Counted from the stretch's first letter, positions 1 to 8,797 are shown. The stretch is DNA of 8,797 bases from a virus (IMGVR_UViG_2531839180_000002:1-8797), one strand, 5' to 3'. The notes: generated by a model from the letters alone, not told the origin. Numbers and translations: made by a program.

Positions 1-990
1 TTATGTGGATGAAATGTGGATGCCTCCTTTTAACGGATTAAGTGAAATTGCATCCTGGAGGAAATCAGGAGCGAGGTGCGCATAGGTCATAGTTTGCTGG
101 ATCGTGGCGTGCCCCATAATTCGCTGGAGCGTAAGTATATTTCCTCCATTAATCATAAAGTGAGCAGCAAAGGTATGGCGTAGAACATGTACAGCCTGTC
201 CTTTTGGTAGGTCTGGCTTAACACTGCGAAGCACCTTGCGATATTCCTCATAATTGACGTCAAACAAAAGGCCGGATTTCTTTGTTTTGATCTCACTAAC
301 AACTTCATCAGAGACAGGAATAATTCGAACTTTTCCGTTTTTAGTTTTGTTAAACGTCACGCGATTATTGATGATGTGTTCCGCGCGCAGATTTTTCGCT
401 TCTCCCCATCTCGCCCCAGTACTGAGACAAAGTAGCGTAATCCGCCGGGCATCACCGCTTACTGCATCCAGTAATTTGGCGATTTCTTCCGTGGTGAGAT
501 ACGTCATTTCGGGTGATTTTCGTTTCAAAGAGGGGAGGGCGCGGAGCGGATTTTCTCCGTGAAATTCCCCGGCATTTGCCAGGAGTGTAAACATTCCTCC
601 GAGATCCGACTCATCACGCCGAACAGTAGACTCTTTTACTCCCAAGGATAAACGGGAGCTTCGATAAGCGGCCATGAAACGAGCATTAATCTGGCTAACC
701 CTTGGATCATTCATTTCTTTGATGATTTTTTTCAACCTGGTTAGAACGCCGTTAGCATATGGCTTATTGCGTCCACCCAATTCCCACCATAACGGAAGCA
801 GATCTGAGAGATGACGTTGCTCTGTTGGCTTTTCAAGCCATTCCTTATCGTGCATGTGGCTGAGAACATAACGCTCAAAGGCCACTGCATCTGCCTTTTT
901 CTTAAAAATCCGCTGAATCCGACGTCCACTTCGGCCACGCGGTCTAACATCCACTTTATACCGTCCACCATCGAGCGCTTTAATTGCCAT
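1..990 (-). CDS. int: Phage tyrosine integrase (P2 Int-like site-specific recombinase), 329 aa
   Basis: Minus-strand ORF ending in TAA at 1-3. N-terminus MAIKALDGGRYKVDVRP resembles P2-family Int. Tyrosine recombinase boxes are visible: TGARWGE, HVLRHTFAAH and the catalytic Tyr in MTYAHL. Start chosen at ATG 988-990 because GGAGGG (complement of 998-1003) lies 7 nt upstream; the track ORF begins 11 codons further up at 1023. Confidence 0.92.
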   Translation of the reverse strand: MAIKALDGGRYKVDVRPRGRSGRRIQRIFKKKADAVAFERYVLSHMHDKEWLEKPTEQRHLSDLLPLWWELGGRNKPYANGVLTRLKKIIKEMNDPRVSQINARFMAAYRSSRLSLGVKESTVRRDESDLGGMFTLLANAGEFHGENPLRALPSLKRKSPEMTYLTTEEIAKLLDAVSGDARRITLLCLSTGARWGEAKNLRAEHIINNRVTFNKTKNGKVRIIPVSDEVVSEIKTKKSGLLFDVNYEEYRKVLRSVKPDLPKGQAVHVLRHTFAAHFMINGGNILTLQRIMGHATIQQTMTYAHLAPDFLQDAISLNPLKGGIHISST

Positions 991-1056
991 TGGCAAGCCC
1001 TCCGGTGAAACGAGGAAAGACATTTCCAGTTTGTAAAACGTAAGAATAATAAAGGG

Positions 1057-1359
1057 TTAGCCAATTTTCCTTTCGGATGGGGGTAAGTCCGTTGGCTCTT
1101 GCCCATAGTGTGCGAGAGCCGGAGCTATCTGCCCGGATTCAGGCGCAATTTTCCCAGTCATAAACCACAACGCATATTTCTCAAATCTGGGGTTGTTTAG
1201 TATTTGCTCAATTACTTCAGCATTAGGGATAGTTTTACCGCTTTCATATCTCCACAGAGCATCACGGTTTAAACCAAGCATTTTTGCTGTATCCGGGAGG
1301 CTAGTAAGTCTCTCGCTTTCACGCATGATTTTTATGCGCTCTCCAATAGTCATACGCAT
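1057..1359 (-). CDS. C: Immunity repressor, P2 C-like, about 100 aa
   Basis: Minus-strand ORF immediately upstream of int, same orientation as in P2 (C then int). C-terminal segment WFMTGKIAPESGQIAPALAHYGQ closely matches the P2 C repressor as I recall it. Start chosen at ATG (complement of 1357-1359) with GGAG 8 nt upstream; the track ORF starts at a non-ATG codon at 1374. Confidence 0.8.
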   Translation of the reverse strand: MRMTIGERIKIMRESERLTSLPDTAKMLGLNRDALWRYESGKTIPNAEVIEQILNNPRFEKYALWFMTGKIAPESGQIAPALAHYGQEPTDLPPSERKIG

Positions 1360-1454
1360 GTTGCAATTCTCCAACGTCTGTATTAATGTTTATACAAATG
1401 AGTTTGATTTGGGGCATCCGTCGCAAGAAATACCCCAAACAGGGAGATTATCAC
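1360..1454. promoter_or_regulatory. Divergent switch region between repressor and early operon (expected face-to-face promoters and operators by analogy with P2 Pe/Pc)
   Basis: 95-bp AT-rich interval between divergently oriented C and cox-like genes. Contains TATTAAT (1381-1387) and TTGATT (1404-1409) hexamer-like elements and AGGGAG (1441-1446) before the cox-like start. Exact promoter and operator positions cannot be fixed from sequence alone. Confidence 0.4.
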
Positions 1455-3622: not shown

Positions 3623-3691
3623 GAAACCAGAACATGCACACACAAAAAAACCGCTTGCCATGCCGCAATCAGTCAGGTTACATTTCCGCTG

Positions 3692-3739
3692 CACCTCACA
3701 AAACGGGTGCCGGGTTTCGCAGCCTGCTGACTACACAAG
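3692..3739. repeat. Direct repeat copy 1 (CACCTCACA ... GTTTCGCAGC ... CTACACAAG)
   Basis: Shares the exact 10-mer GTTTCGCAGC (3714-3723 vs 3890-3899), the exact 9-mer CTACACAAG (3731-3739 vs 3926-3934) and a CACC(T)CACA block with copy 2, in the same order but with indels. Confidence 0.5.
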
Positions 3740-3744
3740 CGCAC

Positions 3745-3765
3745 AACCGCGCCAGCGGTTTTTTT
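3745..3765 (+). terminator. Candidate intrinsic terminator (AACCGC-GCCA-GCGGTT stem-loop followed by a T7 run)
   Basis: CCGC (3747-3750) pairs with GCGG (3755-3758) around a GCCA loop, extendable by two A-T pairs, then TTTTTTT (3759-3765). The stem is short, so this may be a partial or leaky terminator. An alternative fold pairs CGCACAA (3740-3746) with TTGTGCG (3764-3770). Confidence 0.35.
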
Positions 3766-3805
3766 GTGCGTACTGTATTGCCACGTTTTTTTCGCGTCAG
3801 AATTA

Positions 3806-3883
3806 TGGCGGGGCGTACGGGGCCGACTTCGGTCGGGCCGGGTTCTTGTGTAGCCGGTACTGCGAACCTCGTACGTCTCGCCA
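3806..3883 (+). ncRNA. Candidate structured RNA element, about 78 nt: 14-bp closing helix enclosing a cUUCGg tetraloop hairpin
   Basis: 3806-3819 (TGGCGGGGCGTACG) pairs antiparallel with 3870-3883 (CGTACGTCTCGCCA) as 12 Watson-Crick plus 2 G-U pairs, valid only on the plus-strand RNA. Inside, CCGAC-TTCG-GTCGG (3823-3836) is a C(UUCG)G tetraloop hairpin, and CCGG (3838-3841) can pair with CCGG (3854-3857). No RBS-supported ORF is present. Does not fit tRNA geometry. Confidence 0.3.
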
Positions 3884-3934
3884 CCCACAGTTTCGCAGCT
3901 CTGGATGGTGAGTTTTCACAACTTACTACACAAG
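3883..3934. repeat. Direct repeat copy 2 (CACCCACA GTTTCGCAGC ... CTACACAAG)
   Basis: See copy 1. The two copies bracket the terminator-like hairpin and the structured element, about 145 bp between them. Confidence 0.5.
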
Positions 3935-4619: not shown

Positions 4620-7442
4620 ATGACGGCAGAGTACATCAGGGACTGGCAACAACCGCGCCACGCAGTGGGGCGTGAAGGAACGGGGATCCCCGCTCCTGAA
4701 TCCGCGCTTTCCTCCTGGCTGGATGCCTACCGGGTAGAGAACGAGCGCCGCCAGGAAATGGCTGATGCGGCGTTCTCCGCCACGCCGCTGGGCAACCTGA
4801 TTAATAAAAGCCTGGACGCACAGGAAAAACAGGACAAAACCATCACACTGGCAGGAGACGCCAGAAAACAGGCACGCGGCGCGGTGGATGAAGCCATGGC
4901 CTCGCTGCGCCTGCTGCCGTCCTATCTGCGTGATCCGCTTATTCGCCACCTCTCCTTCCTGCGCAAAAAACAGGAAGCCGATCGCCGGAAAGACAAAAAG
5001 AGCTGGCAGGCTGAACGCTACGCGCGCGGAACCCTGCGCAAAATATTCGAACGTCTGGACCGCACCGACCACCGCTGGCTGACACCGGGTTATCGCTCCC
5101 TTGCAGGACGCGAACGCCTGGATGATTTGCTTTACCTGCCGCAGCTCAACAAGCACCAGATACAGACGCTGGCCACCATGACGGCGGCGATGTTCAGCAG
5201 CACCTTCGAAAAACTCTGCGATGGCTTTGGCGCGACTGATGGCGAGCTGACCATGGATGTAACCCTGAAGGCGTATCAGATGCTGGCCCGCATGGCGTTA
5301 CACCTGCACGCCATGCCTCCGCATTATGACGCACTGACAACAGATAAAGACCGGAGGAACGAACCGGACACGGAGCTGCTGCCGGGCGCAGTCCTTCGCC
5401 TGACCTGTGCGGAATGGTGGAAACGCAAACTGTGGCTGTTACGTTGCGAGTGGAGAGAAGAACAACTCCGCGCCGCCTGTCTGGTTTCCAGAAAAACATC
5501 GCCCTATCTGAGCCAGGACGCATTAAGCGAGTTTCGCGCACAGCGCGAGAAAACACGCGATTTCCTGAAAAGTTTCATGCTGGAAAACGAAGACGGGTTC
5601 ACGATTGATCTCGAGACAGTGTATTACGCGGGAGTAAGTAACCCGGTTCACCGTAAGGCAGAAATGATGGCCACCATGAAGGGTCTGGAACTTCTGGCCG
5701 AAGCCCGTGGCGACAAAGCGGTGTTTCTGACCGTCACCTGCCCGTCAAAATACCACGCCACAACAGAGAACGGTCATCCGAATCTCAAATGGAACGGGGC
5801 CACCATGCGCGACTCCAGCGATTACCTGGTTAACACGTTTTTTGCGGCGGTCCGCAAAAAACTGAACCGCGACGGCCTGCGCTGGTATGGCATCCGCACG
5901 GTGGAGCCTCACCATGACGGCACCGTGCACTGGCACATGATGGTCTTTGCTCATCCGGAAGAAATCGACAGCATCGTGGCCATCACCCGCGATATTGCCA
6001 TTCAGGAAGACCGCCACGAGCTGGGCGATGACATAACTCCGCGTTTTAAGGCGGAGTACGTCGACGGCTCAAAAGGCACGCCAACCAGCTACATCGCCAC
6101 CTACATCGGAAAGAACCTGGACAGCCGCGCCGTGGATGGCATCGACCCGAAAACGGGCAAGCCACGCGTTGACCACGAAACCGGAAAATCAATGGCCGAG
6201 AGTGTGGAACGCGCCATCGGCTGGGCGCGCCTTCACCGGGTCCGCCAGTTCCAGTTCTTTGGCATCCCCTCCCGTCAGGTATGGCGTGAACTCCGCCGCC
6301 TTGCCAGCCAGATGGCACGCAACCCGGAAGGCCCACAACGGCTGAAGGATGATGCAATGGATGCGGTACTCGCTGCCGCTGATGCCGGGTGTTTTGCCAC
6401 CTACATTGAGAAACAGGGCGGCGTACTTGTTCCACGCAAAGACTACCTGATTCGCACCGCTTACGACCTCGCAGATGAGCTGAACGATTACGGCGAACAG
6501 AGCGTACAGATTTACGGGATCTGGTCACCACTCATCGGGGAATCCTCCCGTGTGTGCACGCACCCGGATAACTGGAAGCTGGTAAGACGTAAACCGGAAG
6601 CGGAAGACAGCGCCCGCGAAAATGGTTTTGACCTTCAGGGCGGCCCAGCCGCCCCTTGGACTCGTGGCAATAACTGTCCCCGTGTACAGGAAACGGACAA
6701 CAACGGGACAGAACAGCCGGAAGAACGGCCAGCACCGTGGTCGCAGCTCCCTGACGGCGTTGAAGTGAACGAATGGATGCGCTCACTGAAACGGCACGAA
6801 CGCCGGGCGCTGATGCGTTCGCTTCGTGACAAACAGGCAAAAAACAGCCGTGATGAAATGCAGAGCTGGACACAGAGCCGCAAACAGCAGCGGCCTTTGC
6901 CTGATAACCACGAATTACTCGCTAAAGAATGGCGGGAGTCTGCTGAATCTCTCGGCCTGCATATCGGTGAACAGCAGATGCAGCACCTGTTACGGGGCGG
7001 CAGTCTGTACGTTGACGGCAGCATCATTGCACCGCAGGGATTTGAAATTGTACGCAAGCCGGATACCCGACCGGACAGCCGGATCACGCAGCTCTGGCAG
7101 CGCCTGAGCCGTAACCACGGCGTAAGCAGCACGGAGATCCGCCATAACCCGGTCGCCAGCTATCTGGAACAGCTGGGGGCATCAGACCCCGAAGCCGCCG
7201 CACGCCTGGCATCCACACTTCAGCAAGACCAGAACACCATGAAAACACCCGTTACCGTGCTTTCTGACATGCTGCGCGCCATCCGCGACGCAGAGCACGC
7301 GCAGAGAATCAGTGAAACTGCTGAACGCGCCCGCCGCAAAGCAGACCTGCTGCGGGGTGGCCTGACCAGCGGAAACAAAAAACAGACAGAAACGGGATTC
7401 ACAAATCCCGTAAATGAGCAAAAAACGCGCCGCGATATATGA
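4620..7442 (+). CDS. A: Rolling-circle replication initiator, HUH endonuclease of the P2 gpA / phiX174 gpA family, 940 aa
   Basis: HUH metal-binding motif in EPHHDGTVHWHMMVF (HWH at 5928-5936). Paired catalytic tyrosines plus lysine in SYIATYIGKN (Tyr codons at 6090-6092 and 6102-6104), i.e. the Y-x3-Y-x2-K signature. Sits at the end of the early operon as P2 A does. Long N- and C-terminal regions flank the catalytic core. Confidence 0.9.
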   Translation: MTAEYIRDWQQPRHAVGREGTGIPAPESALSSWLDAYRVENERRQEMADAAFSATPLGNLINKSLDAQEKQDKTITLAGDARKQARGAVDEAMASLRLLPSYLRDPLIRHLSFLRKKQEADRRKDKKSWQAERYARGTLRKIFERLDRTDHRWLTPGYRSLAGRERLDDLLYLPQLNKHQIQTLATMTAAMFSSTFEKLCDGFGATDGELTMDVTLKAYQMLARMALHLHAMPPHYDALTTDKDRRNEPDTELLPGAVLRLTCAEWWKRKLWLLRCEWREEQLRAACLVSRKTSPYLSQDALSEFRAQREKTRDFLKSFMLENEDGFTIDLETVYYAGVSNPVHRKAEMMATMKGLELLAEARGDKAVFLTVTCPSKYHATTENGHPNLKWNGATMRDSSDYLVNTFFAAVRKKLNRDGLRWYGIRTVEPHHDGTVHWHMMVFAHPEEIDSIVAITRDIAIQEDRHELGDDITPRFKAEYVDGSKGTPTSYIATYIGKNLDSRAVDGIDPKTGKPRVDHETGKSMAESVERAIGWARLHRVRQFQFFGIPSRQVWRELRRLASQMARNPEGPQRLKDDAMDAVLAAADAGCFATYIEKQGGVLVPRKDYLIRTAYDLADELNDYGEQSVQIYGIWSPLIGESSRVCTHPDNWKLVRRKPEAEDSARENGFDLQGGPAAPWTRGNNCPRVQETDNNGTEQPEERPAPWSQLPDGVEVNEWMRSLKRHERRALMRSLRDKQAKNSRDEMQSWTQSRKQQRPLPDNHELLAKEWRESAESLGLHIGEQQMQHLLRGGSLYVDGSIIAPQGFEIVRKPDTRPDSRITQLWQRLSRNHGVSSTEIRHNPVASYLEQLGASDPEAAARLASTLQQDQNTMKTPVTVLSDMLRAIRDAEHAQRISETAERARRKADLLRGGLTSGNKKQTETGFTNPVNEQKTRRDI
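7376..7414. repeat. 39-bp repeat copy 1 containing the palindrome ACGGGATT-caca-AATCCCGT; lies inside the 3' end of gene A
   Basis: Matches copy 2 at 32 of 39 positions. Palindrome arms at 7392-7399 and 7404-7411. Confidence 0.55.
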
Positions 7443-7448
7443 AGCGCG

Positions 7449-7487
7449 CACAAAACAGGCAAAAACGGGATTTCAGAATCCCGTAAA
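7449..7487. promoter_or_regulatory. 39-bp repeat copy 2 containing the palindrome ACGGGATT-tcag-AATCCCGT; candidate parC-like centromere/operator overlapping a putative parM promoter
   Basis: Palindrome arms at 7465-7472 and 7477-7484. A possible -35 TTCAGA (7472-7477) and -10 ATTAAT (7494-7499) with 16-bp spacing would place the palindrome over the -35. In the plasmid R1 parMRC system, ParR binds repeats that overlap the par promoter. Confidence 0.45.
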
Positions 7488-7518
7488 CGATTAATTAATC
7501 AACATAAGGAAAAGCGAC

Positions 7519-8478
7519 ATGAAAATTTGTATCGACGACGGCTCCACCAACATCAAGCTGGCATGGACTGAGAACGGCGAACGCCGCAACGCCATCAGCC
7601 CGAACAGCTTCAAGTCGGAATGGTCTGCGCCGTTCGGCGGCACGCAGCCCGCGAACTACATGCTTGATGGCGTGCGCTATGGTTTTGATCCGGTCAGCGA
7701 TCGCTTTGTCCAGACGACCGACACGCAATACCAGTACAGCGATGTGAATGTCATTGCCATTCATCACGCGCTGGTCAAATCAGGCATCACGCCACAGGAG
7801 GTGGATGTGGTTGTCACCCTGCCACTGAGCGAGTATTTCGACACAAACGCACAGCCGGACATGGCCAACATCAACCGCAAAAAAGCGAACGTTATGCGCC
7901 CGGTGGAGTACCAGAACGGCGAAGCATTCACTATCCGTAACGTACGGGTTATGCCTGAATCCATTCCGGCTGGCTTTAAGGCACTGGCTGACATGAGTCC
8001 GTTTGAATCCCTGCTGATTGTGGATTTAGGCGGAACCACGCTGGATGTGGCAAAGGTTCAGGGACAACTGGCAGGCATCAGCCAGGTGTTTTGCGATCCA
8101 CACGTAGGCGTTTCCCTGATGGCCGATGCCGTACTGTCGGTGATGGCCACTAACGGTATGCGTACCAGTCACCATATCGCCAGTACCATTATCGAACATC
8201 GCCACGATGAAGCCTGGTTGCACCAGCACATCCACAATGACGCGCATTACGCCAGCCTGATGGCGGTTATTCGTGAAAAGGAAGAAACACTGAAACAACG
8301 CGTGATCCGCGCGCTGGCGGGTTTTTCGGGTTACGGGCGGGTGATGGTTGTCGGTGGAGGGGCAGAAATTGTGGCACCCGCTATCCGCGAAGCCTGCGGT
8401 GTTAATGCGACTTTCATCGCGGACGGGGTGCCACAGTTTGCTCTGGTTAATGGGCTGTACGCAATGGACAAGGAGTAA
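7519..8478 (+). CDS. parM: Actin-like segregation ATPase ParM/StbA, 319 aa
   Basis: ATG at 7519 with AAGGA 8 nt upstream. Actin-fold signatures are visible: phosphate-1 DDGSTNIKL at the N-terminus, phosphate-2 IVDLGGTTLDV, adenosine motif VVGGGAE. Colinear resemblance to plasmid R1 ParM along the whole length, as I recall that sequence. Confidence 0.9.
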   Translation: MKICIDDGSTNIKLAWTENGERRNAISPNSFKSEWSAPFGGTQPANYMLDGVRYGFDPVSDRFVQTTDTQYQYSDVNVIAIHHALVKSGITPQEVDVVVTLPLSEYFDTNAQPDMANINRKKANVMRPVEYQNGEAFTIRNVRVMPESIPAGFKALADMSPFESLLIVDLGGTTLDVAKVQGQLAGISQVFCDPHVGVSLMADAVLSVMATNGMRTSHHIASTIIEHRHDEAWLHQHIHNDAHYASLMAVIREKEETLKQRVIRALAGFSGYGRVMVVGGGAEIVAPAIREACGVNATFIADGVPQFALVNGLYAMDKE

Positions 8479-8482
8479 ACCA

Positions 8483-8797
8483 ATGAGGTCACCAACCAGA
8501 CGGATAAGTTTCTATCTGAAGCCAGCCGCCGTCAAGAGTGAACAGGAGGCGTGCAATTACCTCGACAACCTGCCAGCCTCGGAACGCAGCCGCGCACAAC
8601 GCGCGGCCTTTCTGGCGGGACTGGCACTCATAAAACGTGCCCCCGCACTGGCGTATTCGCTGGCAGAATGGTCAGAAGACGAAATACGGATGCCATCGCT
8701 GCCAGTGCAGCCTGAAAAACAGGCGCAACCAGCAACAGCCAGCGCCACCCCTATGCAGCAGGTGAAAAAGAATATTCAGGCGTTTTTTCCAGAATAA
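8483..8797 (+). CDS. parR: Partition adaptor ParR/StbB (ribbon-helix-helix centromere-binding protein), 104 aa
   Basis: ATG at 8483, 4 nt after the parM stop, with AGGAG (8471-8475). N-terminal region RRISFYLKPAAV...LPASERSRAQRAAFLAGLAL parallels R1 ParR (TIAFKLNPDV...IPQGERSRLNRAALTAGLAL). Ends with TAA at the last base of the window; the track ORF starts upstream at 8348 inside parM. Confidence 0.85.
   Translation: MRSPTRRISFYLKPAAVKSEQEACNYLDNLPASERSRAQRAAFLAGLALIKRAPALAYSLAEWSEDEIRMPSLPVQPEKQAQPATASATPMQQVKKNIQAFFPE

Follow-up and report, generated by a model that had tools for sequence, protein, structure and literature searches.

The stretch of viral DNA IMGVR_UViG_2531839180_000002:1-8797 (8,797 nucleotides, referred to below as the window) covers the left, early arm of a prophage of the P2 family, with genes in the order int, C, cox, small early genes, and gene A, and it closes with a pair of genes of the actin-type ParM/ParR partition family. 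Gene A (4620-7442, plus strand) encodes a rolling-circle initiator of 940 residues with a Phage_GPA domain (Pfam, 3.3e-130, residues 179-503), a protein named replication endonuclease in phage P88 and in Escherichia coli prophages. The end of gene A was separated by 76 nucleotides from parM (7519-8478, plus strand), which codes for an actin-fold ATPase of 319 residues. The second gene, parR (also stbB; 8483-8797, plus strand, 104 residues), starts with an ATG four nucleotides past the parM stop and has its own ribosome-binding site (RBS); the final triplet of the window is its stop codon. An earlier note on this DNA had described an intact parM-parR pair directly after gene A, running to the very end of the window in an element with intact int and C genes, and had equated its position with that of orf91, tin, and old in P2. 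Pfam and structure matches, the extents of the open reading frames, and the P2 record, in which orf91 comes next after A on the same strand and tin and old then lie on the other, agreed with each of these statements.

Homology searches placed both proteins in the ParM/ParR family. ParM matched the Pfam StbA_N domain (1.7e-82) and the ParM C-terminal domain (6.6e-68), aligned over its full length with the solved structure of R1 ParM (1mwk, E = 3e-92), and was 47% identical over its full length to an R1-type StbA from an IncF plasmid. The nucleotide-binding (phosphate-binding and adenosine) motifs DDGSTNIK, PES, DLGGTTLD, and GGGA and the residue E147 showed no variation when the protein was aligned with three other ParMs. 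The gene was intact at 319 residues in 88 of 88 copies (that of the window and those of 87 related loci), with a mean pairwise ratio of nonsynonymous to synonymous substitution rates (dN/dS) of 0.05, a value that indicates purifying selection. A ParM that shares 97% identity with the protein of the E. coli phages was also encountered on a 226-kb contig assigned to the Gram-positive 'Vagococcus sp. WN89Y' (NZ_JBQPOM010000071.1), where it is likely to reflect contamination of the assembly with enterobacterial DNA.

ParR matched Pfam Plasmid_stab_B (PF10784) over residues 6-70 (1.8e-25) and, weakly, the structure of the pB171 ParR/StbB protein (2jd3, E = 0.011), and three segments under different constraint could be distinguished in it. 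The N-terminal domain (residues 1-65; 8483-8677, plus strand) is predicted to be a ribbon-helix-helix DNA-binding domain, had a dN/dS of 0.15-0.19, and was 40% identical to R1-type StbB over residues 1-63. It is followed by a hypervariable linker (residues 66-92; 8678-8758, plus strand) with many alleles and a dN/dS of 0.5-0.7, and then by a conserved C-terminal tail (residues 93-104 plus the stop; 8759-8797, plus strand), for which the dN/dS fell to 0.09. The tail, which ends in QVKKNIQAFFPE (KKNIQAFFPE), aligned with the very end of R1-type StbB (ETKKNAMKLIN) and of other ParRs, with N97 invariant. The C-terminal peptide of R1 ParR reportedly binds ParM, and the conservation of the tail supports a putative, retained ParR-ParM contact in which this segment is the candidate ParM-binding peptide. 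The linker is also mosaic: DNA similarity to most relatives ended at approximately 8537, 8628, or 8680, and the exact ParR protein of the window was found in just one of the 87 other loci.

Two direct repeats of 42 nucleotides precede parM, each containing a perfect 8+4+8 palindrome of 20 bp with the form ACGGGATT-N4-AATCCCGT. The first repeat (7376-7417) falls within the final codons of gene A and contains palindrome 1 (7392-7411, ACGGGATT-CACA-AATCCCGT); the second (7449-7490) lies between A and parM and contains palindrome 2 (7465-7484, ACGGGATT-TCAG-AATCCCGT), which lies 54 nucleotides before the parM ATG. Both palindromes were present in all 86 related loci whose upstream sequence could be used, with a spacing of 73 bp in 83 of them, and a search of ~690 kb of related phage DNA for further copies with up to two mismatches found none. 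Variants among these loci were single, uncompensated changes. In Plesiomonas, where ParR carries the TRRISFYL strand found here, two CGGGA-N8-NCCC(G/A) half-site pairs were kept 72 bp apart, and copy 1 formed no meaningful hairpin (z = -0.16). The retention of half-sites and spacing without the stem favors a protein-binding site. The two palindromes are candidate ParR binding sites of the parC kind; palindrome 2 could serve as a ParR binding site or an operator. The Serratia and Enterobacter homologues, with more diverged ParR proteins, had different symmetric repeats at the equivalent place, as expected if sites and adaptor co-evolve.

The arrangement extends beyond E. coli. The relatives considered here lie outside the E. 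coli clade of ParM (at least 92% identity), and their contexts were obtained by protein search and inspection of the contigs. A Plesiomonas P2-like prophage (ParM 63% identical) had the GPA gene upstream of parM and portal and terminase genes downstream, with int, C, and cox visible, and the same GPA-parM-portal/terminase arrangement was seen in Hafnia (61%), Serratia (58%), and Enterobacter ludwigii (53%). More distant ParM/StbB pairs on large chromosomal contigs had other surroundings: that of Mangrovibacter (CP134782.1, ~50%) was plasmid-like (Rep3, ParA/ParB), possibly an integrated plasmid, and that of Dickeya (CM001975.1, ~48%) resembled an integrative and conjugative element (ICE; integrase, TraG_N, TraU). 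In a neighbor-joining tree, drawn without support values, the prophage ParMs formed a cluster separate from those of IncF, IncL/M, and other plasmids. Because the A-parM-parR synteny persists down to 53% ParM identity and the prophage ParMs form a separate group, the pairing with gene A looks old and stably inherited. A scan of GTDB genomes with a single protein returned only three near-identical loci (one of them the 'Vagococcus' contig), and a second scan of IMG/VR with an alignment of four ParMs recovered the same close set and added nothing.

The cassette is common. Its 1.4 kb were 94-98% identical to 14 phage records, including Escherichia phage P88 (Peduoviridae, Xuanwuvirus) and Citrobacter phage phiSM, in both of which the genes are annotated as ParM and partition protein; the match to the P88 cassette was 96-98%. 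It was present in 24% of complete E. coli genomes (1303 of 5426), O157:H7 and ST131 strains among them. RefSeq uses the names 'plasmid segregation protein ParM' and 'plasmid partitioning/stability family protein', and the two main clusters at 90% protein identity had 1308 and 4287 member sequences. The copy in the window is an ordinary example of a known, annotated module in its usual place. The earlier note had counted a cassette common across P2-like prophages as an argument against its own interpretation, and this is what was observed: the cassette is normal content of P88-like phages, and its gene order recurs in P2-like prophages of four other genera. The P88 paper does not mention the cassette, and the phiSM paper calls the gene a 'fitness factor' but offers no test. 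What is new here is the parM intactness (88/88) with its dN/dS value, the three-part constraint on ParR, the palindromes, the synteny in other genera, and the failure to find a promoter belonging to the cassette itself.

That last point concerns expression. No sigma-70 promoter was found by a tool scan across 7200-8797 or by a looser scan of the 140 nucleotides before parM, which did detect the promoter of an R1-type control, and a scan for plus-strand terminators between A and parM also found none. The two genes occupy the early-operon strand, as does orf91 of P2, whereas tin and old, morons with a role in lysogenic conversion, are on the other strand of P2. Because they share the strand of gene A, have no recognizable promoter of their own, and are not separated from A by a terminator, parM and parR are most likely co-transcribed with cox through A from the early lytic promoter. 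The simplest inference is that the proteins would be made after infection or induction and, under repression by C, would be silent in the integrated lysogen. Between palindrome 2 and parM we read a conserved ATTAATCAA box (7494-7502, plus strand) followed by an RBS (AAGGAA, 7505-7510); the box and an AAGGAA-type RBS also precede parM in Plesiomonas and Hafnia (loci L171, 6441-6449, and L176, 5976-5984; ParM identity ~60%), and the box could be a regulatory site. The supplement to a transcriptome and proteome study of ciprofloxacin-treated EDL933 had no entry for the ParM of prophage CP-933T.

We favor a functional type II (ParMRC-type) segregation module, long-standing and typical of the replication region of P88-like (Xuanwuvirus and related) temperate members of the P2 family, that acts on transient phage circles, and we assign this reading a probability of roughly 55%. 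Among the three options of the earlier note (an episomal state, a phage-plasmid hybrid, or an actin filament that positions phage DNA around replication), it corresponds to the third. ParR dimers would bind the two CGGGA-N8-TCCCG palindromes that straddle the end of gene A, and the conserved ParR tail, by homology to R1, would capture the ends of ATP-bound ParM filaments, so that a growing filament could push circular copies of the phage genome apart. The substrate would be the short-lived circles of a phage whose usual route to lysogeny is integration: those still awaiting integration, those that have been excised, and the monomeric circles from A-dependent rolling-circle replication. Phages of the P2 type replicate to monomeric circles, which are their packaging substrate, and one may speculate that these circles are the natural substrate of ParM and ParR. 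The phage would gain by replicating and distributing its circles efficiently, or by having fewer genomes lost at cell division before integration or lysis.

Several points weigh against this reading. The benefit to the phage is entirely a matter of inference, and the literature searched yielded neither a functional study of the cassette nor an experiment on it. The candidate centromere has only two sites, compared with ten iterons in R1 and about seven in phage-plasmid D6, and the separate grouping of prophage ParMs comes from the tree without support values mentioned above. Failure of a consensus scan is not proof that a promoter is absent; the conserved ATTAATCAA box might act as a weak promoter under ParR control, and parM and parR would then perhaps be expressed in lysogens as well. 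The E. coli palindromes also fit the pattern of a minus-strand intrinsic terminator, with a fold of approximately -10 kcal/mol. We ranked the terminator role below that of a binding site in view of the hairpin loss in Plesiomonas, the uncompensated variants, and the lack of anything obvious to terminate.

A more ambitious form of the proposal, which we offer tentatively and would not yet bet on, treats ParMRC not as occasional cargo but as an anciently acquired, vertically inherited core component of a large integrating P2-family clade that spans Escherichia, Plesiomonas, Hafnia, Serratia, and Enterobacter. Here the module would drive a previously undescribed step of the life cycle by way of an unusually minimal centromere of two palindromic sites, either separating or positioning the monomers of A-dependent rolling-circle replication or partitioning unintegrated genomes during the decision between lysis and lysogeny.

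Alternatively, P88-like phages might persist over many generations as a low-copy plasmid prophage instead of integrating, with ParMRC providing segregational stability. This idea has been published for P88, which was picked up in a phage-plasmid screen and classed as a putative phage-plasmid, with episomal and integrative states suggested and its A gene counted as 'plasmid-like replication' (Pfeifer et al. 2021, PMC7969092). It is also in keeping with the use of StbA/StbB by phage-plasmid D6 (48% ParM identity) and with the existence of a circular 34,461-bp record, pZ1323PEC0009-2 (NZ_CP148288.1), that comprises a complete P88-like genome and was deposited as a non-mobilizable 'plasmid' from a feline isolate of E. 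coli. Against it, 1441 of the 1443 places where the cassette occurred in complete E. coli genomes were chromosomal. The whole window was 96% identical to integrated E. coli prophages, and close relatives were flanked by host genes (pheL and raiA, and dmsA on the int side); the prophage of strain A2, between pheL and raiA, continues after parR with ogr, portal, terminase, scaffold, P2-type capsid, and tail genes, the late genes that the earlier note had proposed to look for. In a collection of 72,556 plasmid records pZ1323PEC0009-2 was the one phage-sized circle, and because the first 5 kb of its locus (int, C, cox, and early genes) were 99.9% identical to the integrated prophage of another strain, it may be an excised, replicating, or induced copy caught by the assembler. 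The remaining full-length plasmid matches were replicons of 0.2-1.4 Mb. A 26.7-kb Shigella 'plasmid' that matched in part was set aside as evidence for an episome, being a linear, degraded, IS1-ridden prophage fragment. The window and the examined part of the P88 annotation (its first 19.9 kb) contained no plasmid-type replication initiator, only GPA, and the cassette had no promoter that we could recognize as its own. These findings speak against stable maintenance as a plasmid being the usual condition of the prophage and leave the episomal and phage-plasmid options of the earlier note weakly supported; we consider such a dual lifestyle unlikely.

Less probable still is that the cassette is a moron, with ParR and ParM expressed in the lysogen to hinder, by incompatibility or exclusion, incoming plasmids or phages with related partition systems or to aid host fitness in some other way. 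The site after A is a cargo locus in P2 (tin and old), the 'fitness factor' label of the phiSM paper points in this direction, and the genes just past parR in relatives, which include HicAB, a KAP NTPase, methyltransferases, and small open reading frames, are variable cargo that adjoins the cassette. It is these neighbors that turn over, however, whereas the linkage of the cassette to gene A is stable across genera. Unlike tin and old, parM and parR lie on the early-operon strand with no recognizable promoter, and every copy keeps its own upstream sites in cis. Cross-binding to plasmid partition sites is unlikely because the ParR N-terminal domain is only 40% identical to that of R1-type StbB and R1-type iterons are absent here. 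As for an inert relic of past recombination with a plasmid, to which the mosaic breakpoints within parR and the undemonstrated function might point, the uniform intactness of parM, the low dN/dS values of parM and the ParR tail, and the synteny kept to 53% identity in other genera effectively refute it.

If the module does act on transient circles, a cytoskeletal partition machine would belong to the routine biology of one of the commonest types of E. coli prophage, and integrating phages would be less clearly set off from phage-plasmids than their annotation implies, as has been shown for ICEs and prophage CGP3. A practical consequence of the cassette is that ordinary P88-like prophages, although integrated, are called plasmid-like or phage-plasmids in automated screens.

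The integrase (1-1023, minus strand; Pfam Int_N and Phage_integrase), the C-type helix-turn-helix repressor (1057-1374, minus strand), and Cox (1386-1781) were all encoded by intact open reading frames with the expected Pfam domains, and the succession of integrase, repressor, Cox, and GPA domains in P2 order, together with the 96% match of the whole window to E. coli prophages that have portal, terminase, and P2-type capsid genes, assigns the element to the P88-like Peduoviridae; the late genes fall outside the window. The A protein is longer than that of P2 (940 compared with 761 residues), and its long C-terminal half beyond the GPA domain had no Pfam match. Upstream of gene A, Rfam identified an isrK-like small RNA (3691-3765, plus strand, 64 bits) and a C4 antisense RNA (3801-3888, plus strand, 83 bits), directly followed by an open reading frame of the 'Derepression protein' family (PF25738, 3945-4175). 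This set looks like an RNA-controlled antirepressor module in the style of P1/P7 ImmI, placed in a P2-like early region, and is possibly the induction switch of P88-like phages.

Among known systems, the same element is found in P88 (NC_026014; gp17-gp18) and in the E. coli prophages that resemble it, those of O157:H7 genomes among them, with 94-98% DNA identity and 95-99% ParM identity. P88 shares with the window the position after a 940-residue A protein and the two upstream palindromes, and differs in the linker and tail of ParR (55% overall identity), the allele in the window being a less common one. The type II archetype, ParMRC of plasmids R1 and R100 (StbA/StbB/parC), has the same two-gene order, with 47% identity in ParM, 40% in the ParR N-terminal domain, and a similar C-terminal tail of the form K-K-N-x-x-x-hydrophobic. 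Its ParR is longer (117 compared with 104 residues), its parC consists of ten 11-bp direct A/C-rich iterons around a promoter instead of two 20-bp palindromes 73 bp apart, its promoter is detectable whereas none was recognizable before parM in the window, and its host replicon is a plasmid rather than an integrating phage with a rolling-circle initiator. The P1-like phage-plasmid D6 (MF356679), the only other phage with an StbA-type protein in a collection of 50,697 records, is comparable in ParM, and its depositors remarked on the likeness to the StbA of P88; its prophage is extrachromosomal and 91 kb long, with approximately seven upstream TCTCAA iterons, whereas the element studied here is an integrating P2-like phage of ~35 kb.

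Two further systems show that integrating elements can use partition machinery on their excised forms. SrpMRC, a ParMRC-like system on the normally chromosomal SXT/R391 ICEs, stabilizes the transient, rolling-circle-replicating excised elements and reduces their loss (PMC4489591); those elements are conjugative and not phages, and SrpM is distant from R1 ParM, whereas the ParM of the window is close to it. The best functional analogy is provided by the AlpAC system of CGP3, an integrated prophage of Corynebacterium glutamicum. AlpAC is induced early and connects the circular phage DNA with filaments, and without it the excised circle does not replicate efficiently (PMC4446434). Like the pair described here, it combines an actin-like ATPase (AlpC) with a DNA-binding adaptor (AlpA) on an integrating prophage; the host phylum and the phage type are different, and the function of AlpAC was demonstrated experimentally, whereas that of ParM and ParR in the window is predicted from sequence.

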